Of a DNA stretch of 64,000 bases, positions 3,863 to 34,767 are shown in pieces (within the stretch, counting starts at the first letter, position 1; each line of letters opens with the position of its first letter). This stretch comes from Escherichia coli (GTDB lineage Bacteria > Pseudomonadota > Gammaproteobacteria > Enterobacterales > Enterobacteriaceae). The notes beneath the pieces were generated by a model that worked only from the letters and a program-made list of their open reading frames with translations, did not search any database and was not told the DNA's origin. The position numbers and the translations under genes were made by a program. The stretch is taken from the NCBI RefSeq assembly GCF_003790525.1, contig NZ_CP033635.1; one strand, 5' to 3'.

Positions 3863-5194
3863 TTATGAACGGCCTTTTGCCAGATATTGCTCCATCTCTT
3901 CTTCCGGCACCATTCCACCTCCCGTCGCCCACACCAGATGAGTGGCATTATGCAGTTGTTCTGCGCTGAAACCGTGCATCTGTTGGTAACTTACTGATGC
4001 GCACACGCGCTGAGGCCCAGCCATACCCGCCAGTGCCGAAGGTTCAAGACGAATACCTTCTTCCTGCGCCAGCCAGCCAAGCATGTCATACATGGTTTGA
4101 TCGCTAAGGGTATAGAAGCCATCCAGCAGACGCTCCATCGCCCGCCCGACAAAGCCTGATGCGCGACCAACTGCAAGGCCATCCGCTGCGGTAAGGTTGT
4201 CGATACCAATATCCTGAACAGAAATCTGATCGTGTAATCCTGTATGGACGCCTAACAACATACAAGGGGAGTGCGTTGGTTCGGCAAAAAAGCAGTGAAC
4301 ATGATCGCCAAACGCCAGTTTAAGTCCGAATGCGACGCCACCAGGACCACCACCAACACCACACGGCAGATAGACAAACAGAGGGTTATCAGCATCGACG
4401 ATACGACCTTGCTGGGCAAATTGCGCTTTAAGACGCTGGCCAGCGACGGAATACCCAAGGAACAACGTGCGGGAATTCTCGTCATCAATAAAGAAACAGT
4501 TCGGGTCAGACTGCGCTGCTTTACGTCCTTCCTCGACAGCAACACCATAATCTTGCTCATATTCCACGACTGTAACGCCATGGCTGCGCAGTTTCGCTTT
4601 TTTCCACGTCCGGGCATCAGCAGACATATGCACTGTCACCTTAAAGCCAATGCGGGCGCTCATTATGCCGATTGATAACCCCAGATTTCCGGTTGAGCCC
4701 ACAGCAATGCTGTATTGACTAAAGAACTGTTTAAACTCCGGGGAAAGCAGTTTGCTGTAGTCATCTTCAAGCGTCAGCAACCCCGCTTCCAGAGCCAGTT
4801 TTTCTGCATGTGCCAGGACTTCATAAATCCCGCCGCGTGCTTTTATGGAGCCGGAAATGGGCAAATGGCTATCTTTTTTCAGTAGCAGTTGCCCGCTGAT
4901 CGGTTGTTGATATTCCTTTTCCAGCCGTTTTTGCATAGCCGGAATGGCAACCAGTTCTGATTCAATAATCCCCCCAGTAGCAGCAGTTTCAGGAAATGCT
5001 TTTGCCAGATAGGGTGCAAAACGGGATAAGCGCGCATGGGCGTCCTGAACATCCTGTTCGGTCAGGCCAACATAAGGTAAACCTTCAGCCAATGAGGTCG
5101 TGCCAGGATTAAACCAGGTGGTTTCTTGAAGAGCAACCAGATCCTCTACCAACGGATACTGGGCGATGAGCGAATTCATTTTAGCGTTTTCCAT
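3863..5194 (-). CDS. dsdA: D-serine ammonia-lyase (dehydratase)
   Basis: The 443-aa ORF begins [16 protein letters not shown] and contains the PLP motif SGSIKARGG. Confidence 0.95.
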
Positions 5195-5211
5195 AGTACG
5201 TCTCTTTGCGC

Positions 5212-6549
5212 TTAGATGATAAATGACAGCAGGAATGTGCCCGCCAGAGCGACGACCGAAGCGATAAATGTCGCGGTCGTATAGTATTTAAATGTTTCAT
5301 TGAGCGTAGCGCCGCAATATTGCTTCACCAGCCAGAAAAGCGAGTCCGTAACGATCGTGCAGCCAATCGCACCTGAACCGATAGCAATCGCAATAATTTC
5401 CGGGCTGATGTCGGGATACAGCGGCAGCATGGGTGCAACAATTGCCGTTGCCCCCATCATTGCCACCGTAGCGGAGCCCACTGCAGCATGCAGAATAAGT
5501 GCCACCAACCAGGCCAGAAGAATCGGGTGCATATGCATATTGGAGAGAATAACTGCCAGCGTATCAGCGAGACTGCTGCTTTTTAAAATGGCGTTGAATG
5601 CGCCTCCGGCCCCGATAATCAGCAAAATATTAGCAATAGAACCGAAGCCATTTTCCGTATGTGTGAGCATTGTCCCCATGCTCATATGCTGGCGTATACC
5701 CAACACATAATAGGCGACAAACACGGCGATAAACATGGCAGTAATAGGGTTGCCAATAAACTCAAGCAAGGTATACAAACCACTCTCACGCGCCATATTC
5801 AATTCGGCAATCGTTTTAACCAACATCAGCGCAATGGGTAGCAGTATGGTGAATAACGTTGCGCCTAATGACGGTAGTGTTTTTTCATCGCGAACTTTGA
5901 GATCGGCAAACTCTGTGGGTACAGGTTTAAAGGGCAGTCGTTGACCCAGAAATTTAAGGAAAAGTGGGCCACCGATCAGTGATGCCATCAGCCCAACCAG
6001 CAAACCGTAGACGATCACCGAACCGATATCTGCGCCCAGCTTATTGGCAACATATAAAGCAGCCGGATGTGGGGGAACCACGCAGTGCACTGCCATCAAT
6101 GCGGTACATAGCGGAATGGCCAGCTTTAACAATGAGGTATTGGTTTTTTTGGCAATTGAAAAAGCCAGAGGAATCAATAGCACGACGCCCACTTCAACAA
6201 ATAGCGTGATGCCGCAAATCAGGCCAACCAGCACCATAATGACATCAGCTGAAAGCCAGCGACAGCGTTGAAGTGTCAGACCAATTCTTTCTGCGGCCCC
6301 GGATACTTCCATCATTTTTCCCAGTATCGTGCCCAGGCCGATAACCGCAGCAAGGAACCCCAGCGTTCCGCCAATTCCACTTTCAATAGCATTTACCATA
6401 TCCAGTGGTCCCATACCCATCATCGTTCCCACGAAGAAGCTGGCCAGCAACAGCGCCAGAAACGGGTGGAATTTGAACTTCACGATGGTCAGTACAATTA
6501 ACACGATGCTGATAAGCAGCGTGCTCACAACCCAGATTTGAGAGTGCAT
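5212..6549 (-). CDS. dsdX: D-serine transporter (GntP family)
   Basis: The 445-aa polytopic membrane ORF lies immediately upstream of dsdA on the same strand. Confidence 0.93.
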
Positions 6550-6766
6550 ATCTCACCTTCCCCTGTGATTAACCTGATGATATTGGACAAAAAAACAACG
6601 CAGGCTGACAAACGATAAAATTTGCCTTTCACATGAGCTAAATTGCATCAAGGGAGTGATTTACATCTAAAAATGAAGGTGAATTGAGATATGGTTCACT
6701 TTAGCTCACCTTACAGCTGAAATTTTGCCGCTATTTTTTTACACTTAAGAGAAAAATGAGGTGATT

Positions 6767-7714
6767 ATGGAACCCCTTCGTGAAATAAGAAATCGACTGC
6801 TTAACGGCTGGCAACTATCAAAACTGCATACTTTTGAAGTGGCTGCCAGGCATCAGTCCTTCGCCCTTGCGGCAGAGGAATTGTCGCTGAGCCCCAGTGC
6901 GGTAAGTCACCGTATCAATCAGCTGGAAGAAGAATTAGGTATTCAGTTGTTTGTTCGTTCCCATCGCAAAGTGGAATTAACGCACGAGGGGAAACGCGTT
7001 TATTGGGCGCTAAAATCGTCGCTGGATACCCTGAACCAGGAAATTCTTGATATCAAAAATCAGGAATTATCGGGAACGTTAACGCTGTATTCCCGGCCCT
7101 CTATCGCCCAATGCTGGTTGGTGCCCGCATTAGGTGACTTTACACGCCGATATCCGTCTATTTCGCTCACCGTGCTCACTGGTAATGACAATGTCAATTT
7201 GCAACGTGCCGGAATCGATTTGGCGATCTACTTTGATGATGCGCCGTCAGCGCAATTGGCTCATCACTTTCTGATGGATGAAGAAATCTTGCCTGTATGT
7301 AGCCCGGAATACGCTCAAAGACATGCTTTAACCAACCAGGTAATTAACCTGCGCCACTGTACGTTGCTCCATGACAGACAGGCATGGAGCAACGACTCCG
7401 GTACGGATGAATGGCATAGTTGGGCGCAACATTATGCGGTTAATTTGCCGACATCTTCTGGGATTGGCTTTGATCGTTCTGATTTAGCTGTTATCGCTGC
7501 GATGAATCATATTGGGGTAGCGATGGGAAGAAAACGCCTGGTACAAAAAAGGCTTGCCAGTGGTGAGCTCGTCGCGCCGTTTGGCGATATGACGGTGAAA
7601 TGCCATCAGCATTATTACATCACCACATTACCGGGCAGGCAGTGGCCAAAAATTGAGGCATTTATTACTTGGTTAAGAGAACAGGTAAGTCAATATGAAT
7701 GTTATACCTTATAA
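6767..7714 (+). CDS. dsdC: LysR-type activator of dsdXA
   Basis: The ORF opens at 6761, but MEPLREIRNRLLNGWQLSK at 6767 matches the recalled DsdC start. It has a LysR HTH and is divergent from dsdX. Confidence 0.9.
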   Translation: MEPLREIRNRLLNGWQLSKLHTFEVAARHQSFALAAEELSLSPSAVSHRINQLEEELGIQLFVRSHRKVELTHEGKRVYWALKSSLDTLNQEILDIKNQELSGTLTLYSRPSIAQCWLVPALGDFTRRYPSISLTVLTGNDNVNLQRAGIDLAIYFDDAPSAQLAHHFLMDEEILPVCSPEYAQRHALTNQVINLRHCTLLHDRQAWSNDSGTDEWHSWAQHYAVNLPTSSGIGFDRSDLAVIAAMNHIGVAMGRKRLVQKRLASGELVAPFGDMTVKCHQHYYITTLPGRQWPKIEAFITWLREQVSQYECYTL

Positions 7715-8108: not shown

Positions 8109-8678
8109 TTATATCTTCTTTATATCTAACACATCACCCTCCCATACTCGTTTAAATCTTGCTGCATTACTGGCTGTATATAATACCGTATGATGTATAT
8201 TTCTGTGCCCTAAATAATCTTGTATTAGTCTGGTGTCTAACCCTTGATTAGCTAAAGCATACCCACAACCATGCCTAAGCATGTGAGGATGAATATTAAT
8301 ATTCATATTGTGACTATATTTCTTACACATCTTATACACATATTGTCTCGAGATTTTATTTCCTTGACAAGAAAGAAATAAAGAGTCTTCAAAAGGTTTT
8401 TTTACTATGTTATCACGTAGTGCTAGCCATTTTTTTAATAACAGAACAGTTTCTTTTTGCAGGGGATGTACTGTGGATAATCCATTTTTTAAACGCTTGA
8501 TATATATTGCTGACTCTGAAAAGTCAATGTCGCTAATCTTTAGTGCAATAAGCTCGCTTACCCTAAGACCATGTACATATGCCATTTGTAACATGGCTTT
8601 ATCTCTAATTTCATTTTTTGAACCGTTGATGGCTTCAAAAAATAACAACCATTCACTATGAGTAATAAATTTGCGCAT
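8109..8678 (-). CDS. ipuB: FimB/FimE-family tyrosine recombinase (phase-switch recombinase)
   Basis: The 189-aa ORF has the motifs HGLRVSEL, HPHMLRH and GHRNIHHTVLYT, typical of fimbrial switch recombinases. It lies in a low-GC island next to dsdC, like the CFT073 ipu locus. The symbol is assigned by position only. Confidence 0.7.
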   Translation of the reverse strand: MRKFITHSEWLLFFEAINGSKNEIRDKAMLQMAYVHGLRVSELIALKISDIDFSESAIYIKRLKNGLSTVHPLQKETVLLLKKWLALRDNIVKKPFEDSLFLSCQGNKISRQYVYKMCKKYSHNMNINIHPHMLRHGCGYALANQGLDTRLIQDYLGHRNIHHTVLYTASNAARFKRVWEGDVLDIKKI

Positions 8679-9426
8679 AATATTATCGGTTATACTAATT
8701 AAGTTAAAAAATAAACTATAAATACCAGAGCCTGGTATTATTGCTTGTTTTTTATAAGCAAATAATGAGCTGGGGTTTAAATTATGCCACTAAATGGATA
8801 TTCATCAATACCCCGCCAGAGAGATAGTTGCCCAGCGGGCATAGATCATTATTAGTCAACCAATGAGCATAAATAAGCACAAGGAGGTGTGTATTGCGAA
8901 TAGTAATTCAATGACATGCTGGTGGTTTTTTTGTGGTGAAAATATTTGTACCTTTTTGTTTACGGATGAAAAATAAACAGTCATATTATTTTGGTTAATT
9001 GTTGTGTTAGTTTTAACACTCGGTGATGTTTTTTGTTATAGTGCATTAATTTTTAAATAAAAAAATTCATACATTCATGGATGTAATATATACAAGATAC
9101 AATGTTAATTTTAGATAAAATATTAATTGCATTGGATACTTTTTAAATATGCCGATGTTGAGCTTAATTTTATGAGGGAATACTATTTCGGGTTGTAGGA
9201 CTTTTTTATAATCATCTTATAGGGCTCTTTATATTTACAGGAGGGTTTTGAACGATAGTTACATAACGAAGGTTGTTTATATGCGTTTACAAGCGATTAA
9301 TTAGATTAGGTGAATTTTAATAAATTAATCTATAATCATACAGCAACTATATGAATTATATTATTGACTAAATGTAATTCTTTCATCATAGTTGACATGG
9401 TTATTTTATATAAATAGAGGTGATTT

Positions 9427-20819: not shown

Positions 20820-22091
20820 CTATTCTTTCCAGTCAATCCCATCCAGTAAGCACCCTGCCTCATATTGCCCAACAACCCAGTCAAGATTGCAGGACTCATA
20901 GAAAGCGAGGCGATTATACTGTGGCTCGTTTTTTACCAGACCACGAACGGAGCCGCGTTGCCAGTACAGGCACAGATTGGCAAGAGGTGTGATCAGCACA
21001 GCATTGTCCGGGAAAAATGGAACGGTCACAGCCGGAAGATTCCCCAGCACGGGCTTTTTAATGATTTCCTCGTTAAGCAAAATTTCCTGATTCATCTGCG
21101 ATGGATCAAGACGGTTTATCAAAGGCCATTGTTTACGGACCAGAGTATTGTGACTGCATACGGCCACAATGCCTTCCTGCCACTGTTCATCAATCATGGA
21201 TTGCCAGGCATCCAGAACAAGTGCATCTATTGTATGGTGTGTACCGCGTGTATTGCTTGTCGGCGATGAAACAGAAAGACCGCTGATAACCCTTCCCGCT
21301 GCTTCGTTTCGAAACTTCTGCAACCATCCGACGCCGCAATCGTCACGGCCCGGATATGTTTCAGGATCAGATTGATCGGCATAGTGTGTGCCGTTAAAAC
21401 CAATCTGAATTAAATCCAGCCATTTCCGGCGTTCAAAAGCGGCACGGGCGCTTCCTTCAAGACCATTTGCGGACGCGTGAGCATCGACATTGTCGTAGCT
21501 CAACGCAAAATCAAAATTAACCTGCTCGCAGCGGTAGCCTCTTGAAACCAGTGAATGCGCCTGTAGTGGCGAACGGCGCTCGTGAGGTGGCGATGTACGT
21601 GCCAACGGCCGGGAAGCGTCTACCAGCACAACCTGACCTGATATATCCGTAACAGGCACGGGGGTTATTTCAGCAAGGAAATTTGCCTGCCATCCACTGG
21701 CAAGCGTTGCACTCTGGCGGGGAACGGGTTCAACTTCTGACGAATAGCGCGCAGTATCACCGGAAAAGTGCAAATCCTTCGGATGCTTTCCGGTTATCGA
21801 CTCGATAGCGCAATTGAAAACCATCTGAGACTGTTGATTTCGTTGTGATACAACATAATCAGCAGTGCAATTATAACACTCAATGCCGTCGTTATTACCC
21901 CCACCGCTTGCAGTATGCAGGGTGTGAAGCTCAAGCTCACGCTCCAGTTTTTGATATTCATTGTCCAGCGCGCGACGCGTCTCATCGCTTATGCTTGCTG
22001 TGTTTGCTTTCAGGCGATTCCGGGACATTAACTCCCTGAGTCGGCTCACTATATCAGCGCCGTGCAAATGTGAAATATTCAGACCGCCCAT
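20820..22091 (-). CDS. P2 GpN-family major capsid protein homolog with a ~95-aa N-terminal extension (possible fused scaffold domain)
   Basis: The protein is collinear with recalled P2 GpN. CEQVNFDF aligns with CDQINFDF, GWLQKFRNEA with GWLQKYRNEA, GNLPAVTVPFFPDNAVLITPLANL with GNLPAVRVPYFPADAMLITKLENL, and YESCNLDWVVGQYEAGCL with YESMNIDYVVEDYAAGCL. The start was chosen at the TAATG overlap with the upstream gene (MGGLNISH) rather than the ORF-track start at 22232. Confidence 0.8.
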   Translation of the reverse strand: MGGLNISHLHGADIVSRLRELMSRNRLKANTASISDETRRALDNEYQKLERELELHTLHTASGGGNNDGIECYNCTADYVVSQRNQQSQMVFNCAIESITGKHPKDLHFSGDTARYSSEVEPVPRQSATLASGWQANFLAEITPVPVTDISGQVVLVDASRPLARTSPPHERRSPLQAHSLVSRGYRCEQVNFDFALSYDNVDAHASANGLEGSARAAFERRKWLDLIQIGFNGTHYADQSDPETYPGRDDCGVGWLQKFRNEAAGRVISGLSVSSPTSNTRGTHHTIDALVLDAWQSMIDEQWQEGIVAVCSHNTLVRKQWPLINRLDPSQMNQEILLNEEIIKKPVLGNLPAVTVPFFPDNAVLITPLANLCLYWQRGSVRGLVKNEPQYNRLAFYESCNLDWVVGQYEAGCLLDGIDWKE

Positions 22092-22801
22092 TACTGCCAC
22101 CCCCGGCAGAGTTCTCTGCCCTCCGCAAGGTCGCGCATTTTTTCTGGATTCTGTCGCGCCGCGCTCCATTGTACAGGTGAAGGGGCGTTCCTGATTGCGT
22201 GGCTTACCGAATCCGGCAGTTTCTCCGGGCAATAACGAAGCGGATTGGAGGCATCGCTCTCAATATCGTTAATCCGGCCGCGAATCAGCCCGACACTTTC
22301 AACAATATCTGCCATTTTCAGTGTTTCACATATTTTCTTTTCTGCGTTATACAGCGGCTGGCCAAGCAGCTCACATAAACCACGAATCAATAGCAGAGCA
22401 GGGGTCAGCTCGTTAATCAGTCCGGGAAGTGCTTTTGCAAATATCTCTGCCCGCAACTTATTATCAATGCTTTGGTAAGCACAGCCAGCCTCTGCCGCGT
22501 TATAACGACACTCCAGTAACCTGATGCGCGCCTCATCATGCAATACCCGCAGACGCTCAAGATTTTCTCGCGCCACACCCGCCTGAATGCATAATTTTGC
22601 GGAGGCTTCCGTTTTTGCGCCCAGCGCAGACAGGATTGAGTTCTGCCAGTCACGTTCGAGAGACTCCAGCTCCCCTTTCGTCTGTTCGATAGTCGCTTCC
22701 AGATTGGTGATTAATGATTCCTGTTCGCTGAGTTTTGCCATGGCCGTATCAAACTGTGCTTTACATGCCTGATGCCTGGCGCTTGCCTGAGTTATATCCA
22801 T
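22091..22801 (-). CDS. coiled-coil protein, possibly Sid/Psu-like capsid size-determination or decoration factor
   Basis: The 236-aa ORF is predicted helical, with a heptad-rich N-terminus (AKLSEQESLITNLEATIEQTKGELESLERDW). Its size and position (after Ogr/Delta, before the capsid gene) resemble the P4 sid/psu module. An AGGAG RBS is present. Homology is not verified. Confidence 0.45.
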   Translation of the reverse strand: MDITQASARHQACKAQFDTAMAKLSEQESLITNLEATIEQTKGELESLERDWQNSILSALGAKTEASAKLCIQAGVARENLERLRVLHDEARIRLLECRYNAAEAGCAYQSIDNKLRAEIFAKALPGLINELTPALLLIRGLCELLGQPLYNAEKKICETLKMADIVESVGLIRGRINDIESDASNPLRYCPEKLPDSVSHAIRNAPSPVQWSAARQNPEKMRDLAEGRELCRGWQ

Positions 22802-22879
22802 TGTTTGCTCCTGTAATACATTTTTTACTTACGCCCATTTTTTCCATATTGCGTAATACATTCCAGCCGATTTTGTTCT

Positions 22880-22910
22880 CGTAATACGCTCACAATACTG
22901 TTGTATTACG
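22880..22910. promoter_or_regulatory. inverted repeat CGTAATAC-N15-GTATTACG in the divergent promoter region (candidate operator)
   Basis: The repeat is read directly. It lies between the divergent 236-aa gene and the RHH gene. The same 8-mer recurs 8 times between 22813 and 23889. Confidence 0.5.
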
Positions 22911-22965
22911 CTTTCTTATATCGCGGGTGTTAAATCCCGGTATAAGCAATCAGGGAGGCAACACG

Positions 22966-23199
22966 ATGAAAAAACAAAAGAAAATGCGATACGTATTACG
23001 CTGTATTCGTATCCCGCACGAAATCGACCATAAAATAAATCAGATATGTAAGGACAGAGAGATGAACTACTCCCAGTGCGTCAGAATGTTTATCTGTCAG
23101 GGAATTAAGGCCGGGGAAACGCAGGAAGAAGACCGCAACGGGCGCAATGTAGCGGGAGATGTGTGGGCCTGGGCAAATGACCAGAACTACACGACGTAA
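22966..23199 (+). CDS. small ribbon-helix-helix-like DNA-binding protein (hypothetical)
   Basis: The 77-aa ORF starts at the internal ATG preceded by a GGGAGG RBS. The pattern YVLRCIRIPHEIDHKINQICKDREMNYSQCVRMFICQGI fits a strand-helix-helix fold. The assignment is tentative. Confidence 0.45.
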   Translation: MKKQKKMRYVLRCIRIPHEIDHKINQICKDREMNYSQCVRMFICQGIKAGETQEEDRNGRNVAGDVWAWANDQNYTT

Positions 23200-23249
23200 T
23201 ACAGAAATAACGTAGCCGGTTACACTCGCTGGCTGCGTTATACAAATCA

Positions 23250-23432
23250 CTATGAAGTTTTCAACTTCCTGCGCTTAGTGATGCGTACAAACGACTCAAG
23301 CGTACAAAAACAAGCCCCACACTCAATATTACTGCACTGGTAATACGTTTTGTAGATGTTTTGTTCGTGCTCTTCCAACGAACGACTACGGGTTCGGGCT
23401 GAAGCGCCACAGGCCGGGCAAGGGAAAGACAT
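23250..23432 (-). CDS. Ogr/Delta-family zinc-finger late-gene transcriptional activator
   Basis: The 60-aa ORF has CPACG...CSNIECGACF, four Cys with the Ogr/Delta spacing. A GAGGAG RBS is present. Confidence 0.8.
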   Translation of the reverse strand: MSFPCPACGASARTRSRSLEEHEQNIYKTYYQCSNIECGACFCTLESFVRITKRRKLKTS

Positions 23433-23793
23433 ATCACGCTCCTCTTACTGGTGTGAAATTTGACCTATTATATCTCCTGCCGCCCCCTCTGGCTGTATCA
23501 AATAAACCCGCAGCAGTCGCCGCGTATTACGGACGGACGCACCGTTCCCATGCTCACTCGTCACATTCCCCGTATCAGTTCTCTCTTACCGTAAGAACGG
23601 CTCTGGCTGGCGATAAAACTAACCCGGTCGGGCATTCCCGCAGTCTTTAGAGAAAATGTAATTTACCCCCTGAAACGTGGGCTGTTCCCCCGTCACCTGC
23701 GCGCGAAAAACTCACCGTTTTTTGTGCACGCACGAAATCGCCCTCCGGGTGCGCCAGTACTGGGCCGGATGGGCAAAAAGTTACTCTAAAAAA

Positions 23794-23820
23794 TTGTGCA
23801 AATTTGTGCACTTTTGTGCA
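23794..23820. repeat. three helically phased direct repeats of TTGTGCA (exact 10-bp period)
   Basis: ttgtgca occurs at 23794, 23804 and 23814 in non-coding DNA between the iteron field and ogr. Confidence 0.85.
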
Positions 23821-24046
23821 GATGAACAATAGCGTGAAAAAGAGTGCTTTTGAGAGATTTTTTATGGCAACTGCGCCGCGTGTATTACGTTTTTTACCAT
23901 CCCCGCCGCGCATGTACATACTTCATTTTTCTGCCAGACAACAGGGCAACTCCCCGTGACTGACAGCCCCAAAAAATCAATGATTGATGTTGCATTTTTG
24001 TTAAAGGTTAGACCAGTTGTTTTAGGGCTCTGCCTCATAATCCGGT

Positions 24047-24360
24047 GGGGGGTGCGCAAAGCGGTTACAACGGTTACAACACTCAAAAACACCACTTAAC
24101 AGCATGATTTTAATGGATATTGTTTGTAACCGCTTTGCGGTTACACTGCGGTTACAACGGTTACAGGTTTCAAAAAGCACTTTATTATCAATCAATTAAA
24201 AACTTAACCTGTAACCGCCTGTAACCTAACAAAACGGTTACATGTAACCGCGTTGTAACCGCTTTTATAACTCATCGGACCAGTTATAATATATTGATAT
24301 ATAATACAAAAATAAGTAATTTTAAATTTGTAACCGTTGTAACCGCTTTGCGCACCCCCC
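24047..24360. repeat. iteron field (candidate replication origin): 13 copies of GGTTACA/TGTAACC enclosed by 33-bp perfect inverted repeats, with an AT-rich tract
   Basis: The left arm ggggggtgcgcaaagcggttacaacggttacaa (24047-24079) is the exact reverse complement of 24328-24360. The heptamer occurs in both orientations throughout. The AT-rich stretch lies at about 24280-24327. Confidence 0.7.
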
Positions 24361-24611
24361 CCCAAACTTTAGCGCGACCCTTTAAAATGTTAATTAAACT
24401 CACTTACTCTGTATCTCTCTCGTTAACTCTCTGTTATTGAAATGTATCTCTCCACTGTTTCACTCTTTCTGATAATCAGGGGAAGCAAAAAATTGATGGC
24501 GGCACTACTGCAATATGGCCACCATTGCATTGCTGTTACCGTTGGTTCTGGCCAACAAAAAAGGTCAGCGGGAAACTGACCTCTTTTGCTGTGAATGCGG
24601 CGTTCTGCGGG

Positions 24612-25616
24612 TTACTCTGCTGGCTCTTTTTCTTCGGTGATCACTATGTTGGCTACCGGGTTAAATCTCATGGCATCTGCCAGATAATCCGGTGCAAAAT
24701 GTGCGTATGCCATAGTCTGCTGAATTGTCGCATGCCCAAGGATTTTTTGTAGCGCAAGAATGTTGCCACCGTTCATCACAAAGTGACTGGCGAATGTATG
24801 CCGCAATACATGCGCAGCCTGCCCCCTCGGTAAATCGGGTTTTATTTTTTTTAATGCCCGGCAAAACTCTCTGTACTTCACATCAAACAGTCGCCCGGTT
24901 TCTTTTGTTTTTACGGCATCGCATATTTCCTGCGACACAGGCACCGTTCTTTTTCTACCGTTTTTGGTTTCCAGAAACGTTATTCTGTTATGAACTATTT
25001 GCTCTCCATGCAATCTGCTGGCCTCACTCCAGCGGGCTCCGGTACAAAGACACAAGAGCGCAACCCTTCGTTGATCTCCATTCAGCCCGTCAAGCAACAA
25101 TGTGACCTCGTTTTTTGATAAAAAGGCCATTTCCCGCTGCTTTACATAAAGAACAGGAATACCACGAACCGGATGCTCTGCATCCCACAAACCGATCTTT
25201 TTCAGGGCTGTAAACATCCCCGATAATCTGTTCATGTATCTGTTTGCTGAGGACGGCTTTAATCCTTCCGCAATTTTCTGCGATCGCCATGCAATGATTT
25301 TTAATTTGTTGAGTTCTGCCGCAAACATGTCAGCTCCAAGCTCATTAATAATTTTGCCAAGTTGCTGTTTATCCGTGTTTGCCTTTCGCCTGTGCTGACC
25401 GTGATAGACCCACCACAATTCCAGTAAATCGCTAAGCGTTCTCCGGTCGCGATAGCCCTGTATAAACTCGCGCTTTTCGGCGTTCGCTATGATGTACCGT
25501 TCAGTTGCTGTAGCTATCGATTTTTTGTCAAATATTCTTCTGATGCGCTTCCCTTTACGTCCGCATGGCCTGATATCGAGCAGCCACCGCCCATCATGCA
25601 TCTTTCTGATCGGCAT
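24612..25616 (-). CDS. P2-type tyrosine integrase (second recombinase of the island)
   Basis: Residues MPIRKMHDGRWLLDIRPCGRKGKRIRRIFDKKSIA ... LCLCTGARWSEASRL ... HVLRHTFASHF ... LGHATIQQTMAYAHFAP are collinear with recalled P2 Int. The ATG lies 2 nt after the primase stop, with a GGAGGGGAG RBS inside the primase 3' end. Confidence 0.85.
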   Translation of the reverse strand: MPIRKMHDGRWLLDIRPCGRKGKRIRRIFDKKSIATATERYIIANAEKREFIQGYRDRRTLSDLLELWWVYHGQHRRKANTDKQQLGKIINELGADMFAAELNKLKIIAWRSQKIAEGLKPSSANRYMNRLSGMFTALKKIGLWDAEHPVRGIPVLYVKQREMAFLSKNEVTLLLDGLNGDQRRVALLCLCTGARWSEASRLHGEQIVHNRITFLETKNGRKRTVPVSQEICDAVKTKETGRLFDVKYREFCRALKKIKPDLPRGQAAHVLRHTFASHFVMNGGNILALQKILGHATIQQTMAYAHFAPDYLADAMRFNPVANIVITEEKEPAE

Positions 25617-25618
25617 GT

Positions 25619-28288
25619 TTAACTCCCCTCCTTGTAACTGAATATCCGGCATTTCAGTACTTCCGGCTCTCTGGCCTCGGCGACCCCTCTTCCGGCGTTT
25701 GCCTGTCTGGAGACCTCACTACGAATGGTTTTGCGGCCTGTCAAAGGTCGGGAACGTCCGGCTGCGAGCAACTCAATCATTTCGCGGTCAGTTCGGATCT
25801 CCACGCGGTGAATAGCGGCAGCCTGTGCCAGTTGCGGAATACTGATAGCAATCCCCTCGCGGCATCCCTTGCCGTAGTGGTTTACACCGTATTTTGTTAT
25901 GCCGTCCAGATAGTCGAACGCCTCCCAGAACGCTATTACTTCCGGCAAGTCATCCGTTACCGCTTTAACTTGTTCCGCTGCCATTCGTTCCAGTTCCTGG
26001 CATGTGGCATTAAGCCATTCATCCGGGATATCAATAACGCATTTCAGCGCCCTGACCAGCGCAATAAGTTGCGCGTGATTTTTGGCAATACGGGGATGGA
26101 GAATATTTTCGCAACCGCAAAGGCGGGTCGTTTCAGGCTCTGAGAGCGCCAGAAACATTTCCATAATTGCCCGTTCACGGCTGACTGCCCGATGAATAAA
26201 CCCTGACACCTTCTCAACGGGGTAGAGTTCCAGTCGTCTCGCCGCCAGCCGGGTATCAGACGAGTGGCGCTTTTTATCGGTATATATGCGAATCAGTCGC
26301 TCAATAATTGCAAGTGAGGCGTTTACCCTGGCATTCTGTGCAATCACGATAGCGCCCTTAAAATCCGGGTCATAGGTGTTGTTATTGTTGGTCTTAACGC
26401 CACGAACGCCGATACCGCCGCCGTTATAGAGGCTTTTCAGGTTATCGAAGTCAAACGCACCTCTTTTTTGCGCATTGCCTCCCCTGTCTGCTTCAATCAG
26501 AACAACAGGTAATCCGGCGACCTGTCCAAAGGTGCGCTTCCAGCCCGCCTCTGATCCTTTGGTTGGATCAACGCCTTCATAGTTGTCACGACCGCACAAC
26601 CGCCAGCAAAAATCAATCAATGTTGATTTACCCGTTCCGGGCTCCCCGGTGACTTCAAGGAAGGGGAAGGATTCTTCTTTATCCCGGATTTGTTCGCTGA
26701 ACAGGGAGCCCAACCAGAAAGCCAGGGTAATAATTCCTTTTTCACCAAAAGCCAGCCAGAGATCTTCCACCCAGGACTCTGTAAACTCATCCGGTTTTTT
26801 GTAGTTAATCTGTAATGTGGGTTTTTCGCTTAATGGTTTTGCGTTTATGCCATCAATTTCAAAATAATCTTCGTCATTGATTTCATAAGTTTTTCCCTTG
26901 TAAACAGCAATATCATTAAACAGCCATGCCCCAATCGCCTTGTTGTATCCGATAAAATCCTGACCAATAACCTCTTTTATTGCGGGAAGGTCATTTTTTA
27001 TTAATGCGTCAAGGTGCGCAGTTGTTCCGGTATAAATGCCGCCTTTTGCCACATGCAACAGGCGTTTTTTAAATTCAGATGCGGATGTCAATTGTCCTGA
27101 TGTAAAGGTGTTTTTCACCGTAGCACCATCCGGGAACGTAACACGGAAGTAATACCATGCTTCATCCGTGTCATTATTTCTAATGTAATAAAGCGGCGCT
27201 GGGTTACAGTTTGCGATTTCTTTTACTGCGCCAGATTCCTTAAGTGCAATTTTGCGCGCTTCATCCTCATCAACACTTCTCTCATTCTTGGCACGCTCTA
27301 CAGCTTTCATATAGCGCTCAATGTCCAGTTTGAACCAGAAAACACGGTTATCAAAAGTAAAATGAAATTCCTTCCGCTCACGAAAGGAAAATATTATTAG
27401 CGCCTTATCTCTCGGAGATTTCGCCAGCAATAAATCACCGTAATGACGGTATCTTTTCACATCATGGCCACGCAGCTTTCCGGCGATGTGTAAATCATTC
27501 CAGTCGCGTTTATTGTTGTTTTTACCTGGCAACGCCGCTGCCGTTCTCCAGCCGTCTTCGGCGCTGCGTTCTGCATGTTTTTTCGCGTAACGCTCACCCG
27601 CACGCCCGTTATCCAGCGCCCACACAATAACCGGACGGGGATTATCCCCGCACAGCTTCGCCAGCTCTTCCAGCGCCTTATCAGGGTAGTTCACGGCAGA
27701 CATGACAGAAACGGCCGCAATGCCATTCTGGTTAAGGCTGATGGCATCAAAGATGCCCTCACAAATCCAGATTTCTTTGGCCTTGCTTAAATCTGCTCCC
27801 GGATAAGCCCACCACAACCCCTTGTAGCTGCCGGAAAAATTCGCCTTGCGCGCGAAGCGTCCCGGTCGGTCTATGATGCGCTCCCACCACACGCCGTCAG
27901 CCAGCGTAAAACGCACAGTAGCGGCCTGTTCGCCGTTTTCCTTGTCCTGGTATCGCTCCTGAGTAAATGCGCCCTTCAGTGGCCCCACAGCAATATTGCG
28001 CGCCTCCTGAAGATAAGCTGCCACCGCTGCATATGGCTCGTCTTTCGTGCTGATATAACGATCTGACCATGATGAAAACACATCCGGGTAAAGTTCTTTG
28101 GTCAGCAGGTCTGTACCGCATTTATTTTCGCGCCCACAGTGTACGATGTACGGCCTTTCAAGGCTGGTAAACAACTCTTTCTTTCCACATTGCGGACAAA
28201 CACCATACCGGAGGTAGTTATTTTCTTCTTTGAAGTTGTAATCACGGATAAGACGGTTAATAATCTCTTTTCTGATGTCAGATTTCAT
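25619..28288 (-). CDS. P4 alpha-like primase-helicase (Zn finger, Toprim and SF3-type P-loop NTPase)
   Basis: The features are CPQCGKKELF...HCGRENKCG (zinc finger), WICEGIFDAISL (Toprim) and VTGEPGTGKST (Walker A). The start was chosen at MKSDIRKE (28288), which has a GGTGGAG RBS. Confidence 0.85.
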   Translation of the reverse strand: MKSDIRKEIINRLIRDYNFKEENNYLRYGVCPQCGKKELFTSLERPYIVHCGRENKCGTDLLTKELYPDVFSSWSDRYISTKDEPYAAVAAYLQEARNIAVGPLKGAFTQERYQDKENGEQAATVRFTLADGVWWERIIDRPGRFARKANFSGSYKGLWWAYPGADLSKAKEIWICEGIFDAISLNQNGIAAVSVMSAVNYPDKALEELAKLCGDNPRPVIVWALDNGRAGERYAKKHAERSAEDGWRTAAALPGKNNNKRDWNDLHIAGKLRGHDVKRYRHYGDLLLAKSPRDKALIIFSFRERKEFHFTFDNRVFWFKLDIERYMKAVERAKNERSVDEDEARKIALKESGAVKEIANCNPAPLYYIRNNDTDEAWYYFRVTFPDGATVKNTFTSGQLTSASEFKKRLLHVAKGGIYTGTTAHLDALIKNDLPAIKEVIGQDFIGYNKAIGAWLFNDIAVYKGKTYEINDEDYFEIDGINAKPLSEKPTLQINYKKPDEFTESWVEDLWLAFGEKGIITLAFWLGSLFSEQIRDKEESFPFLEVTGEPGTGKSTLIDFCWRLCGRDNYEGVDPTKGSEAGWKRTFGQVAGLPVVLIEADRGGNAQKRGAFDFDNLKSLYNGGGIGVRGVKTNNNNTYDPDFKGAIVIAQNARVNASLAIIERLIRIYTDKKRHSSDTRLAARRLELYPVEKVSGFIHRAVSRERAIMEMFLALSEPETTRLCGCENILHPRIAKNHAQLIALVRALKCVIDIPDEWLNATCQELERMAAEQVKAVTDDLPEVIAFWEAFDYLDGITKYGVNHYGKGCREGIAISIPQLAQAAAIHRVEIRTDREMIELLAAGRSRPLTGRKTIRSEVSRQANAGRGVAEAREPEVLKCRIFSYKEGS

Positions 28289-29289: not shown

Positions 29290-29809
29290 GGCACGCCTCC
29301 CGGACACGGATACGGGCAACAAAGACCAGACGGGATGCCGGAAGCAGGGCGCGCGCTTCGCGCTCACTGGCAGCGGTAACGGTATGAAGGCGGATATTTT
29401 TACCGTGGCACTGCATAAAGCGCCAGATAAAATCAGGGCGTGTTGATATAGCCATTTTGGCGGCTCCTTGATTAAGTTTACGGAGTCTCGCCAGCACGCT
29501 GTCAAACATGGTGGCGGGACGTAACAGGGTTGACAGACTGGCAATCAAGGAACCAGCGAGCGCAAAGGCTCCCCCATTACGCCCCGCCATAATACGGGGT
29601 AGGGTGGAATTACGGGCACAAAAAAACCGCATTACGGAAATATAGCGGCTACCCGCTTGATTGTTCAGGCTGTCAAACCCGGCACCCGCTTTATGAGGTG
29701 CGGGCAAACGATACGCCATGACAAAAAAGCGAGTCAAGCAATATTGCAAATTATTTTTGCGCAATTGCGCTGAGTGATTGATTTTTAAGAGTAAAAAAGT
29801 CATAATCAT
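29282..29809 (-). CDS. Ash-family / Icd-like (cell-division-inhibitor-like) protein, possibly a fusion or with a later start
   Basis: The middle segment (AGAGFDSLNNQAGSRYISVM...RIMAGRNGGAFALAGS) resembles Ash-family proteins of P4-like islands. The C-terminus (FIWRFMQCHGKNIRLHTVTAASEREARALLPASRLVFVARI) resembles Icd-like proteins. Confidence 0.55.
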   Translation of the reverse strand: MIMTFLLLKINHSAQLRKNNLQYCLTRFFVMAYRLPAPHKAGAGFDSLNNQAGSRYISVMRFFCARNSTLPRIMAGRNGGAFALAGSLIASLSTLLRPATMFDSVLARLRKLNQGAAKMAISTRPDFIWRFMQCHGKNIRLHTVTAASEREARALLPASRLVFVARIRVREACHV

Positions 29810-31194: not shown

Positions 31195-32457
31195 TCAGTC
31201 TGTTTCGTTAGTCCATTTAAAATCATAGGGGGAAATATATGCCGCCTTGCAGGTGTCGAGATAATCAGCCCACCATTGCAACATTCGGCGGCGTTCCTGC
31301 ATATGTTCAGCTCTGTGAACGTATGCAGCCCGGACACTGCCTCTTTCCCTGTGACTCATCTGAAGCTCAACGGCTTCTCTTGTCCACCTGCCTGACTCTG
31401 TCAGCGCCGAACAGGCCATGGTCCTGAATCCGTGACCACAAATATCTTTTTTTGTGTCGTATCCCATGTGGCGTAATGCCTTGTTAATGGTGTTTTCGCT
31501 CATTGGTTTTATCTGGTAATGGTCGCTGGGGAAAATAAACACTTCATCACCGGATATATTTCTTATATCGTCAAGAAGCTGCATGGCCTGAGTGGGTAAA
31601 GGGATGGCGTGAGGGGTTCCCATTTTCGTTCCACGATATGAATATTTTACGCCTTCTATTTTTTCGCGTTCTGCTGGTATTACCCACATTGATTTATCAA
31701 AGTCAATTTCATTCCAACGAGCAAAACGCAATTCACTTGAGCGAATAAAAATTAATAAATTTAATTTTAGTGCAAATTGCGTTAATAACCGTCCATTCAT
31801 CTTATGGTGGTAATCATTTATTTTGCCAAGTAATTCAGGTAATCGCTCAAGGGGAAGAGCGGGGCGATGTTTGGTTTTATTAGTTTCGATTGCACCGTTC
31901 AGTTCCTGCGCTGGATTGTATTTAATCATTCCATTCTGTACAGCGTAGCGCATAATGGCGTTCATTCGCTGCTTGTTACGTGATGCTGTCTCAAGCACTC
32001 CTTTGTCTTCCATTTTGCGTAAAGGAATCAGTAGATCCATGGTTGTGATCTCGTTAATTGGCCTTTTACCAAGAATGGGGAAGATGTGGTTTTCCAGGTC
32101 TTTTAAGACTTTTTGCGCGTGCAATTCGCTCCAGCCCTTTTTCCGGCTGTGCCATTCTCTGGCAACGTCTTCAAAAAGCACTATTTGAGGTTTTGGTGTG
32201 TGCAGTGGGTCAATGCCTTTAGCCAGGCTCGCCAGATATTCATCACGAGCGTTCCTTGCCTGTGCAAGTGTTACGGCAGGATAAATGCCTAAAGCTCGGG
32301 TCGTTTCTTTACCGTTGATAACCTTGCGAAAGCGCCAGTATTTTGAGCCGTTGGGGTGAACATAGAGATACAGGCCTTTCCCGTCACGAAGTTTTTTAAT
32401 TTTATTGTTGTCCTTATCTGGTTTGGCGTTACGTACAGCTATATCAGTCAGTTTCAT
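31195..32457 (-). CDS. P4-type (DUF4102 N-terminal arm-binding domain) tyrosine integrase
   Basis: The ORF has MKLTDIAVRNAKPDKD...GKGLYLYVHPNGSKYWRFR, and C-terminal HGFRTMA and Y in VRAAYVHRAEH. The start at 32457 has a GGAGGA RBS. The gene lies directly downstream of, and co-oriented with, tRNA-Arg. Confidence 0.9.
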   Translation of the reverse strand: MKLTDIAVRNAKPDKDNNKIKKLRDGKGLYLYVHPNGSKYWRFRKVINGKETTRALGIYPAVTLAQARNARDEYLASLAKGIDPLHTPKPQIVLFEDVAREWHSRKKGWSELHAQKVLKDLENHIFPILGKRPINEITTMDLLIPLRKMEDKGVLETASRNKQRMNAIMRYAVQNGMIKYNPAQELNGAIETNKTKHRPALPLERLPELLGKINDYHHKMNGRLLTQFALKLNLLIFIRSSELRFARWNEIDFDKSMWVIPAEREKIEGVKYSYRGTKMGTPHAIPLPTQAMQLLDDIRNISGDEVFIFPSDHYQIKPMSENTINKALRHMGYDTKKDICGHGFRTMACSALTESGRWTREAVELQMSHRERGSVRAAYVHRAEHMQERRRMLQWWADYLDTCKAAYISPYDFKWTNETD

Positions 32458-32635
32458 TATGTTGATCCTCCAGACGGGTACAAATAAAAATCGAACCAAG
32501 CATACCCGCTTTTATACCCATTTTAATATGGGCTTCAGGCAAATTTAACGAGAGAAAATGAGACAATGGGAGATGTTTAACTCATTGAAAGTAAATGGAT
32601 AATGGTTTTTTCTGAGAGGTTGCAAGAAGTTGCGA

Positions 32636-34011: not shown

Positions 34012-34767
34012 ATGAAGCTTCGCCTGTCGGCGCTTGCTCTGGGAACTACGCTTCTGGTGGGGTGTGCGAGTTCCGGTACAGATCAGCAAGGGCGTTCTGA
34101 CCCGTTAGAAGGGTTCAACCGCACCATGTACAACTTCAACTTCAATGTATTAGACCCGTATATTGTTCGACCGGTCGCTGTCGCCTGGCGTGATTATGTT
34201 CCGCAACCGGCGCGTAACGGTTTGAGCAACTTTACTGGCAACCTTGAAGAACCTGCGGTGATGGTTAACTACTTCTTGCAGGGCGACCCTTATCAGGGGA
34301 TGGTCCACTTTACCCGCTTTTTCCTGAACACCATTTTGGGGATGGGCGGCTTTATTGATGTTGCAGGGATGGCGAACCCGAAACTGCAACGGACTGAACC
34401 TCACCGCTTCGGTAGTACGCTTGGTCATTATGGTGTGGGTTATGGGCCATACGTTCAGTTACCGTTCTACGGTAGCTTCACGCTGCGTGATGACGGTGGT
34501 GATATGGCGGATGGTCTTTACCCGGTTCTTTCCTGGCTGACCTGGCCGATGTCTGTGGGTAAATGGACGCTTGAAGGGATAGAAACTCGTGCGCAGTTGT
34601 TGGATTCCGATGGTCTGCTGCGTCAGTCGTCCGATCCTTATATTATGGTGCGCGAAGCGTACTTCCAGCGTCATGATTTCATCGCTAATGGCGGCGAACT
34701 CAAACCGCAGGAAAATCCGAACGCGCAAGCGATTCAGGATGATTTAAAAGATATCGATTCTGAATAA
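34012..34767 (+). CDS. mlaA: outer-membrane lipoprotein MlaA (VacJ), phospholipid asymmetry maintenance
   Basis: The 251-aa ORF has the lipobox LLVGCAS and the sequence DPLEGFNRTMYNFNFNVLDPY. Confidence 0.95.
   Translation: MKLRLSALALGTTLLVGCASSGTDQQGRSDPLEGFNRTMYNFNFNVLDPYIVRPVAVAWRDYVPQPARNGLSNFTGNLEEPAVMVNYFLQGDPYQGMVHFTRFFLNTILGMGGFIDVAGMANPKLQRTEPHRFGSTLGHYGVGYGPYVQLPFYGSFTLRDDGGDMADGLYPVLSWLTWPMSVGKWTLEGIETRAQLLDSDGLLRQSSDPYIMVREAYFQRHDFIANGGELKPQENPNAQAIQDDLKDIDSE

Follow-up and report, generated by a model that had tools for sequence, protein, structure and literature searches.

We found that the control region of a P4-like satellite island in Escherichia coli carries an array of a 9-bp odd palindrome, YGTAWTACR, which probably serves as a set of operators to which the 77-aa ribbon-helix-helix (RHH) protein of the island binds as a dimer, gating or feeding back on late promoters activated by a helper phage. 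The window, that is, the whole stretch of DNA analyzed, comprises 64,000 nucleotides of contig NZ_CP033635.1. All eight matches to YGTAWTACR fall inside positions 22812-23889, compared with 1.77 expected, a count reached by 0 of 100 shuffles, and the probability that eight random matches in 64 kb would all lie inside 1,078 bp is ~3e-12. The remaining ~63 kb of the window, mostly chromosome, contains zero copies.

The 9-mer describes the repeat unit better than the 8-mer CGTAATAC/GTATTACG, on which the original prediction of a cluster in ~1.1 kb was based. That cluster was confirmed, with seven exact copies (starting at 22852, 22880, 22903(-), 22993(-), 23195, 23524(-) and 23882(-)), all within 22852-23889 and none elsewhere in the window, plus one copy matching at 7 of 8 positions. 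The claimed over-representation was likewise upheld: shuffled sequence contained a mean of 1.15 exact copies and a maximum of 5. The 7/8 copy had been placed one base off, at 22813, and is TGTAATAC at 22812-22819. Allowing one mismatch to YGTAWTACR added two copies, CGTTATACA at 23236 and GGTAATACG at 23339-23347, the second of which falls inside the Ogr/Delta-like gene. Across the whole window, one-mismatch 8-mers were not enriched (59 versus 41 expected), which confines the signal to the exact motif and to this region.

Based on Pfam and PHROG matches, the island has the integrase, AlpA, alpha-type primase and Ogr/Delta homolog of a P4-like satellite. It also has a helper-like cos, homologous to that of P88-like phages, and Rfam matches on the island include C4 (C4/CI antisense RNA; 74.6 bits) and isrK. 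In place of P4-like Sid and Psu homologs it carries a P2-family capsid gene, which is paired with a gene for a 236-aa coiled-coil protein in all related islands. The 236-aa gene had been labeled 'Sid/Psu-like', a description that the sequence does not support: tblastn detected no resemblance of the protein to P4 Sid or Psu and, against a phage collection, found nothing, and neither Pfam nor PHROG gave a match. The 60-aa Ogr/Delta-like protein matches PF04606 (E = 2.3e-11) and has the same annotation in NZ_CP127314. The homolog of the island's cos segment adjoins the portal gene in phage P88 and occupies bases 133-299 of the record of phage 500465-2. Beside the primase is an iteron-like cluster of a different sequence, GGTTACA x13 (24044-24363). 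Coordinates of the sites and neighboring features are listed in Table 1.

Table 1 Motif copies and associated features of the satellite control region (window coordinates)
Feature	Position	Strand	Sequence or family	Context
P2-family major capsid protein gene	20820-22091	-	PF05125 (E = 2e-73); PHROG 70	Annotated in L001
Operon presumed under the leftward promoter	20820-22801	-		236-aa gene plus major capsid gene
236-aa coiled-coil protein gene	22091-22801	-		Paired with the capsid gene
Site A	22812-22820		TGTAATACA	10 bp upstream of the 236-aa gene start, beside its Shine-Dalgarno; ~+10 to +18 of the putative leftward late promoter
Site B	22852-22860		CGTAATACA	Over the -35/spacer of the putative leftward capsid-operon promoter
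Ogr-type activator box	22874-22895	+	TGTTCT-N12-ACAA	Form of the P88 late-promoter boxes
Site X	22880-22888		CGTAATACG	Extra copy within the 12-bp spacer of the activator box
Site C	22902-22910		TGTATTACG	Over the -35 region of the putative rightward RHH promoter
77-aa RHH-like gene	22966-23199	+		Proposed 9-mer binder
Site D	22992-23000		CGTATTACG	Within the RHH gene, over the β-strand V-L-R codons
Site E	23195-23203		CGTAATACA	Overlaps the RHH stop codon
Ogr/Delta-like zinc-finger gene, 60 aa	23250-23432	-		Convergent with the RHH gene
Site F	23523-23531		CGTATTACG	~95 bp upstream of the ogr start; overlaps the 5' arm of a terminator-like hairpin (- strand, 23524-23509)
cos-region homolog of P88-like (Xuanwuvirus) helper phages	23661-23820			Between sites F and G
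Site G	23881-23889		TGTATTACG	61 bp right of the cos-homology segment

Four diverged relative islands carry the same kind of 9-mer, with RHH proteins 31-45% identical and 236-aa proteins 22-32% identical (an RHH identity of 49% for L002 was set aside as a frameshift artefact because that assembly is error-rich). The sequence of the 9-mer varies by island, being TGTAWTACA, TGTATAACA or TGTCWGACA, and each variant is enriched at home: six copies versus 0.12 expected in L016, three versus 0.09 in L014 and four versus 0.10 in L015, where an 11-mer, CTGTATAACAG, was counted with up to one mismatch and one of the four copies lies outside the control region. The L015 motif is asymmetric and fits a symmetric dimer less well. 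Searches for related loci with Ogr or RHH queries among genome, viral and metagenome contigs found nothing, as did alignment searches in which the queries were too diverged, word-indexed homolog searches recovered close E. coli copies only, and none of the 101 loci from an architecture-pattern search of IMG/VR had an RHH or Ogr homolog.

Across islands the sites keep shared offsets from the RHH start codon, at about -154, -114, -64 and +23 to +26. Site A has a counterpart in L015 and L016 (-154/-158 from the RHH ATG), the site B offset (-114/-118) recurs in L010, L014, L016 and L122 and site B also aligns in A7, the site C offset (-64/-65) recurs in L010, L015, L016 and L122, and an equivalent of site D is found at +23 in L016 and L122. 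L016 has a further site at +188, close to the end of its RHH gene. Site X is specific to this E. coli lineage: L001, L003 and L004 have it, whereas L010, L014, L015 and L016 have no copy at that position. To the right of cos, the diverged islands keep a site 46-61 bp from the homologous segment; in L015 and L016 it is the island's own variant, at 46-47 bp, and L014 has the window variant there in place of its own. Among Salmonella copies, 0 of 72 motif columns vary compared with 117 of 1,096 others (p = 3.9e-4), and among E. coli copies 1 of 81 compared with 74 of 1,050 (p = 0.022), the sole varying column being in site E (G to A at 23196 in L003 and L009). These substitution patterns indicate that the sites are under purifying selection. 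An argument from the codons over the in-gene site (GTA TTA CGN) was judged weak, since both GTA and TTA are frequent in these genes.

Positional conservation, purifying selection and linkage to the RHH/Ogr/capsid module thus support the earlier suggestion that the repeats are probably binding sites of an island-encoded regulator, though the candidates it offered are not equally likely. RHH and Ogr-like genes are both present in every island found, so presence or absence is unable to separate them. The ~165-bp intergenic region (22802-22965) separates the leftward capsid operon from the rightward RHH gene, and within it sites B and C flank a single Ogr-type activator box. GTTCT-N12-ACAA occurs once in the 64-kb window, at 22875; late-promoter boxes of this form lie at 14214 and 33253 in P88, and the window and L014 share it. 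L010, L015, L016 and L121-L123 have TGT-N12-ACA at the homologous position, and that exact pattern was not found in 22800-24000 of the window. The intergenic region yielded no sigma-70 consensus promoter; its GATAAT-like -10 elements, which recur at conserved distances, are weak and lack -35 elements. With transcription starts placed from these elements, predicted at ~22830 (-) and ~22942 (+), the box would lie at about -54 to -58 from both. In Ogr/Delta-dependent promoters, the box is centered ~55 bp upstream of the transcription start. Cognate activators of the Ogr family are at hand in both the island (Table 1) and P88 (34476-34733). The pair CGTAATAC-N15-GTATTACG noted earlier at 22880-22910 is indeed present but is not one bipartite operator, as one arm is the lineage-specific copy in the activator-box spacer and the other is the conserved site at the -35 region of the putative RHH promoter.

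An unlikely alternative, though the strongest, is that the 9-mers are auxiliary sites with low spacing (TGT-N3-ACA) for the island's or helper's Ogr/Delta zinc-finger activator, supplementing the TGT-N12-ACA box. Their outer triplets, TGT...ACA, equal the half-sites of the Ogr-box consensus (taken from PMC3931495), an Ogr-like gene is present in every island bearing the motif, and copies lie upstream of and within ogr. However, a separate, well-placed Ogr box stands between sites B and C in all islands; in the window it is the P88-type variant at 22874-22895, which led us to reject the 9-mers as the canonical Ogr site and counts against Ogr/Delta as the originally suggested binder. P88 has an unannotated Ogr 50% identical to that of the island over 52 aligned residues, along with late-promoter boxes, yet shows no enrichment of the 9-mer. 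In the one comparison possible, OgrA of L010 lies closer to the L014 Ogr (49% over 47 residues) despite their different motifs, and further from the window Ogr (41% over 46) despite nearly identical motifs. A 3-bp spacing would also be expected to make the half-site readers clash if they bound as on the N12 dyad. Finally, all sites persist in a Salmonella clone whose ogr carries a nonsense codon, although this is a single recent clone. Read as a natural knockout, the ogr pseudogene of L016 was regarded as weak evidence, because L016, L017 and L018 are one clone (0 differences) and ogr is intact in L121-L123.

Marginally less probable is that binding of the RHH protein to the array is mainly architectural, forming a nucleoprotein complex around cos that marks the DNA for the helper terminase or organizes the packaging substrate. 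The best-conserved positions are instead the four around the divergent promoters, and their base-pair-exact offsets from the RHH start and the Ogr box are as promoter control predicts. Moreover, the copy nearest cos in L014 is the 'wrong' variant. The cos segment already resembles that of a helper, which leaves no obvious need for a further specificity factor.

A reading of the sites by a helper-phage or host protein, such as a helper early regulator signaling infection or a host global regulator, appears improbable. Satellites commonly sense helper proteins, and the motif is common to E. coli and Salmonella islands. Nonetheless, the P88 helper-type genome has one chance copy and none at regulatory regions, which makes a helper factor, the remaining candidate of the original prediction, unlikely and also led us to reject a helper late-promoter element; the chromosomal part of the window, as noted above, lacks the motif. 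The window and L014 share cos and helper type yet differ in motif, as would fit a reader encoded by the island.

Comparisons among islands bear on other modules as well. L005 lacks the RHH gene and has zero 9-mers, although its primase is 94% identical, its second integrase 99% identical and its GGTTACA iterons the same; L014 has the GGTTACA iterons of the window and a different 9-mer; L010, L016 and L121 have other primase families and the same 9-mer; and toxin-antitoxin cargo differs between islands. In these comparisons the motif travels with the RHH/Ogr/capsid module and shows no dependence on the replication module, on the second integrase, on the toxin-antitoxin cargo or on the P88-like helper genome. 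It is therefore very improbable that the 8-mers are replication iterons like the six 8-bp type-1 repeats of the ori in the P4 sid-vis intergenic region (NC_001609 annotation), bound there by the alpha primase: the likeness is superficial, the repeats do not covary with the primase across L005, L014 and the two other primase families, and the window's own iteron-like cluster is a different sequence. Three further readings were rejected: a second-integrase site, by comparison with L005, L014, L010, L015 and L121; an antitoxin operator, given that toxin-antitoxin modules differ among islands and the mazEF promoter has no copies; and an RNA element, there being no Rfam match in 22800-24000 and a 9-nt palindrome being unable to form a hairpin.

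Among the RHH protein, Ogr/Delta and a helper factor, the RHH-like protein is therefore the best candidate binder suggested by these comparisons. It shows the β-strand, helix, helix topology of the RHH fold over ~45 residues. Searches with the 77-aa protein gave no Pfam or PHROG match at E ≤ 0.01, no curated RHH family model above threshold and nothing relevant in a PDB sequence profile search; sub-threshold matches were to ORF56 in NCBIfam (E = 0.007, 16 bits versus a cut-off of 50) and, in Pfam at E ~0.1, to CopG_antitoxin, TraM, RHH_9 and RelB. A 9-bp odd palindrome would fit a single RHH dimer. Using the base-contact residues of Arc, and a β-strand register set by analogy through alignment on a conserved Pro as in Arc, we predicted the DNA-contacting residues of each protein. 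Each motif variant coincides with a change at one of them, L,T,R occurring with TGTAWTACA (L010 and L016), L,C,R with YGTAWTACR (window), L,A,R with TGTATAACA (L015) and R,T,R with TGTCWGACA (L014), in a comparison of only four motif classes from five lineages in which non-contact strand residues vary too. By analogy, the invariant Arg may match the invariant GT/AC and the extra Arg of L014 the new G:C pairs.

Operator binding by the RHH protein suggests the following model. The intergenic region would copy the divergent late-promoter region of the helper phage, with a single Ogr-type box ~55 bp from each putative start. Predicted operators B and C would cover the -35/spacer of the two divergent promoters, with A in the capsid-operon leader, D in the early RHH coding region and, in this E. 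coli lineage, X inside the activator box. Given operators placed over the promoters and the activator box, RHH binding would compete with RNA polymerase and Ogr, and the capsid operon would stay quiet in the resident island. Because the RHH gene itself would be under one of these promoters, negative feedback may follow once helper or island Ogr fires them. Copies upstream of ogr and on both sides of the cos-like segment could extend control to ogr or permit looping. Against the model, no promoter is apparent for the copies that surround cos or lie inside ogr, and L014 carries the window's variant beside cos.

More broadly, it is a serious possibility, if a shade short of probable, that late genes in a distinct lineage of P4-like satellites from E. 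coli, Salmonella and relatives are switched by an undescribed RHH family through its 9-bp operator array. Such satellites would encode a P2-family capsid instead of Sid/Psu, and the array would enclose one helper-mimicking Ogr box in a bidirectional promoter as well as bracketing cos. We know of no prior experimental study of this satellite group. If the model is correct, the satellite could gate, time or limit its response to the helper late activator, and perhaps couple expression to packaging, and the model would account for the silencing, until a helper arrives, of a capsid gene that the satellite itself encodes. The resulting regulatory map is testable, comprising a helper-mimicking box, satellite operators over both late promoters, a candidate repressor without family annotation and natural specificity variants; a β-strand code of L/T/R versus TGTAWTACA and R/T/R versus TGTCWGACA would be testable directly. 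The mechanism class, a small repressor with palindromic operators, is ordinary; the regulator family is undescribed.

The closest parallel is P4 itself, where the small DNA-binding protein Vis (orf88, 8764-9030) is the first gene of a promoter diverging from a capsid-related operon (sid, at 9583), and where both divergent promoters, PLL and Psid, have Ogr/Delta boxes, as we infer for the island. Vis is reported to bind the late-promoter region, acting as a repressor of PLL and a modulator of Psid. Vis is a helix-turn-helix protein (AlpA/excisionase-type), whereas the fold predicted for the island protein is RHH and its sequence is not similar to that of Vis; it would add an RHH-based solution beside that of P4. 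Unlike vis, the island regulator gene stands alone, convergent with ogr. The P4 boxes (TGT-N12-ACA at 9133, 9493 and 9531) are ~400 bp apart with the origin between them, in contrast to the one box, compact bidirectional region and separately located origin-like iterons of the island. The array resembles the type-1 iterons of P4 ori/crr in having an 8-bp unit repeated many times next to a sid-type operon, but the 9-mers are unlinked to the primase. RHH repressors such as P22 Arc/Mnt, MetJ, CopG, omega and PutA (five GTTGCA sites) have short repeated or palindromic operators; the 9-bp odd palindromes of the island differ in extending over ~1.1 kb, into coding regions and the flanks of cos, and in being combined with a zinc-finger activator box. 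That box resembles those of P2-like Ogr/Delta late promoters in its TGT/ACA-type half-sites, set 12 bp apart, in the nearby Ogr-family gene and in the apparent lack of a -35 element. The 9-mers are lacking from helper late promoters; specific to the satellite, they stand on either side of the box and, in this lineage, also within it.

Searching both strands of the 64-kb window, we found seven exact matches to the 8-mer CGTAATAC (22852, 22880, 22903, 22993, 23195, 23524 and 23882) and none elsewhere in it, compared to a mean of 1.15 and a maximum of 5 in dinucleotide-preserving shuffles; an eighth copy, a 7-of-8 match, is TGTAATAC at 22812. Based on the flanks, the repeat is better described as YGTAWTACR, an odd-centred palindrome of 9 bp, present as CGTAATACG, TGTAATACA and two mixed forms. 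All eight matches to YGTAWTACR (1.77 expected in the 64-kb window) lie within 22812–23889, with none in the remainder of the window, and two one-mismatch 9-mers occur in the same stretch (23236 and 23339). None of 100 shuffles contained eight matches, and the probability that eight random matches in 64 kb all fall inside 1,078 bp is ~3e-12. The concentration of eight copies and the strong over-representation described in the original prediction are therefore confirmed, far above chance.

The surrounding island combines homology to the cos region of P88-like phages with a satellite-type gene content, and is thus a P4-like satellite. In phage P88 (NC_026014.1) the cos match adjoins the portal gene, and in a second phage record it is found at the beginning of the sequence, the position expected for cos. 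This homology points to the probable helper type, making a P88-type phage probably the helper. Within the cos segment itself are TTGTGCA in three invariant copies and a G-rich core resembling that of P2 cos; the segment has matches at 80–90% identity, without annotation, in ~420 of 5,426 complete E. coli genomes. The segment with the C4/CI-type RNA and isrK is a P4-type immunity region, and the GGTTACA cluster is probably an origin or crr-like element of the toprim primase. This cluster is common to the window, L014 (a diverged related island) and L005 (an island with a closely related primase); the second tyrosine recombinase is found in part of the related islands and missing from others.

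Features of the satellite island, listed from right to left
Feature	Position (strand)	Details
Whole island		~13 kb; adjoins tRNA gene
Integrase and AlpA		First genes from the right
Integrase of the row above (tRNA-proximal)	31195–32499	
C4/CI-type antisense RNA and isrK	29507–29701	Rfam RF01695 (74.6 bits) and RF01394 (50.6 bits); overlap icd-like ORF
icd-like gene		Overlapped by both RNAs above
Large toprim primase		Left of icd-like gene
Second tyrosine recombinase (Int_N + Phage_integrase)	24612–25652	Directly downstream of primase
GGTTACA/TGTAACC repeats	24044–24363	13 copies, both orientations; AT-rich core within 36-nt inverted repeat (97%)
cos-homologous segment	23661–23820	~80% identity to P88-like Peduoviridae (Xuanwuvirus) phages
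Ogr/Delta-like zinc-finger gene	23250–23432 (−)	
77-aa gene	22966–23199 (+)	
236-aa coiled-coil protein and P2-family major capsid protein	20820–22801 (−)	Divergent from 77-aa gene
MazEF pair		Last element at left

The island lineage is a capsid-encoding branch of P4-like satellites. The 423-aa major capsid protein shares 35% identity with the P88 capsid across residues 120–423 and has a ~119-aa N-terminal extension. The 236-aa coiled-coil protein resembles neither P4 Sid/Psu nor the P88 scaffold/protease at a detectable level, and its earlier description as Sid/Psu-like is not supported by sequence. The same gene pair also occurs in islands from Salmonella and from metagenomes.

When the 77-aa, 236-aa and Ogr-like proteins were used as queries, word-indexed searches returned close E. 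coli copies only. At least 80% of 22700–24000 is matched in 54 complete E. coli genomes at ~95–97% identity, and all eight 9-mers are kept in the fetched close copies, except for the loss of one (site E) in L003. The closest relative, L007 (E. coli GF60), is 99.7% identical over 22700–23447 and shares the upaE-proximal insertion site; an IS21-family insertion right of ogr (4848–7155) cuts ogr off from the cos-side motif copies. Four more remote homologs (33–36% identity to the 77-aa protein), one of them from Salmonella enterica, came from an exhaustive HMMER search; they lie on contigs with a common order: toxin–antitoxin pair, P2-family capsid, ~242-aa protein, divergent small protein, convergent Ogr-like gene, primase and integrase. 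Further Salmonella variants were included in the comparison.

The diverged islands all carry an enriched 9-mer built as TGT-N3-ACA, each in its own version: TGTAWTACA in L016 from Salmonella (6 copies vs 0.12 expected) and in L010, TGTATAACA(G) in L015 and TGTCWGACA in L014 (3 vs 0.09 expected). Measured from the small-gene start codon, sites recur at about −154/−158 (window, L015 and L016), −114/−118 (window, L010, L014 and L016), −64/−65 (window, L010, L015 and L016) and +23/+26 (window and L016), followed by 9-mers near the end of the small gene and several to its right, one of them 46–61 bp past the cos homology. Because these offsets are kept at the base-pair level while the 236-aa proteins are 22–32% and the small proteins 31–45% identical, the alignments provide strong evidence that they are conserved for function. 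Three Salmonella variants (~92% identical) show no variation in the 72 motif columns, compared to changes in 117 of 1,096 others (p = 3.9e-4); among five E. coli copies, the figures are 1 of 81 and 74 of 1,050 (p = 0.022). The 9-mer finding is real and functionally constrained. The pair CGTAATAC-N15-GTATTACG noted originally is also present, but consists of a lineage-specific extra copy and the conserved −64 site.

With replication proteins, the second integrase and cargo excluded as readers of the 9-mers and helper factors unlikely, the module-specific proteins remain, two of which are DNA-binding: the ribbon-helix-helix (RHH)-like 77-aa protein and the Ogr-like protein. The former is the better candidate. 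A 9-bp palindrome matches the size read by one RHH dimer. Arc contacts bases through Gln9, Asn11 and Arg13; with the β-strand register set after Arc, by alignment on the conserved proline, the predicted contact residues are L, T and R in L010 and L016 (TGTAWTACA), L, C and R in the window (YGTAWTACR), L, A and R in L015 (TGTATAACA) and R, T and R in L014 (TGTCWGACA). All motif changes accompany predicted contact-residue changes, the invariant Arg corresponding to the GT/AC that never changes, and the extra Arg of L014 to two new G:C pairs. This covariation is suggestive, not decisive, spanning only four motif classes in five lineages in which RHH and Ogr always co-occur.

That co-occurrence would also allow the island Ogr-like protein to be the reader, which we consider unlikely: it has a separate box, and its helper homolog functions without 9-mers. 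In the only comparison available, the L010 protein OgrA is closer to that of L014 (49% over 47 residues), whose motif differs, than to that of the window (41% over 46), whose motif is near that of L010, suggesting that Ogr similarity does not track the motif. In one S. enterica island clone (L016–L018), ogr is interrupted by a premature TAA stop at codon 6, within the first CxxC (8443–8445), and in the related Salmonella islands L121–L123 it is intact; every 9-mer site is kept with either form. L010 has two tandem diverged Ogr-like genes (3920–4370; 31% mutual identity) in place of one.

Replication proteins fail as binders: in L005 the primase (94% identity to that of the window), the second integrase (99%) and the GGTTACA repeats are all shared, yet there are zero 9-mers (it has no small-protein homolog, and its Ogr is only 27% identical); L014 shares the repeats yet carries TGTCWGACA; and L010, L016 and L121 have TGTAWTACA with two other primase families. 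The second integrase is absent from L010 and L015, toxin–antitoxin cargo varies between islands, and P88 has one chance copy of the 9-mer. The helper factor among the original proposals is therefore unlikely, which leaves an island-encoded regulator, probably the RHH-like protein.

Late promoters that depend on Ogr/Delta have the consensus TGT-N12-ACA (PMC3931495), and an exact match to it occurs between the −114 and −64 sites in L010, L015 and L016. At the corresponding position the window lacks an exact match and has TGTTCT-N12-ACAA instead (22874–22895), its single occurrence of the GTTCT-N12-ACAA type, which L014 carries inverted. P88 itself carries the asymmetric GTTCT-N12-ACAAC, rather than exact TGT-N12-ACA, at its two divergent late-promoter regions (14214 and 33253). 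It also has an intact ogr gene (34476–34733), unannotated in the RefSeq record, whose product is 50% identical to the island Ogr over 52 aligned residues. Given the shared box and homologous activators, the 165-bp intergenic region is a predicted copy of a bidirectional late promoter of the helper type, served by one activator box. A scan of this region for sigma-70 consensus promoters detected none. GATAAT-like −10 elements lie at fixed distances in five islands, placing the Ogr box ~54–58 bp from both inferred start sites. The −114 site would then cover the −35/spacer of the leftward (capsid-operon) promoter and the −64 site the −35 region of the rightward one, with the −154 site in the capsid-operon leader and the +25 site early within the small gene's coding sequence. 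The extra copy, found in the window lineage only (22880–22888), lies between the half-sites of the activator box, in its 12-bp spacer, and the site at 23523 overlaps a terminator-like hairpin. An octamer, TCCAGCCG or a near variant (22862–22869), is conserved in L010, L014 and L016 between the −114 site, which it directly adjoins, and the activator box.

The array is best explained as a set of putative operators for an RHH regulator that carries no annotation and would act in the satellite late-gene switch. RHH dimers would bind the 9-mers and block the −35/spacer regions at both divergent Ogr-dependent promoters and, in the window lineage, the activator box itself. Because one of these promoters would drive the RHH gene, the protein would regulate its own gene and feed back negatively on the capsid operon, which, given the inferred sign of regulation and start sites, would be held silent in the resident island. 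Control could extend to ogr through the copies that lie within and upstream of this gene and to either side of cos, and the same copies could permit looping.

The putative RHH operator array is a new case within a familiar kind of regulatory system; the satellite lineage itself, with its own P2-family capsid protein, is the more unusual feature. In function, the nearest counterpart of the 77-aa protein is P4 Vis (orf88), a small DNA-binding protein that acts on late promoters and whose gene lies just downstream of the late promoter diverging from Psid. In the P4 sequence record, where we examined the layout, TGT-N12-ACA boxes lie at 9133, 9493 and 9531. Vis is a helix-turn-helix protein, whereas the island protein has a predicted RHH fold, and the P4 origin separates the two promoters, whereas the island has a compact single-box bidirectional promoter. 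The 77-aa protein is a member of none of the curated RHH families; together with its putative sites, it is similar to the classical RHH repressors that act through several short operators.
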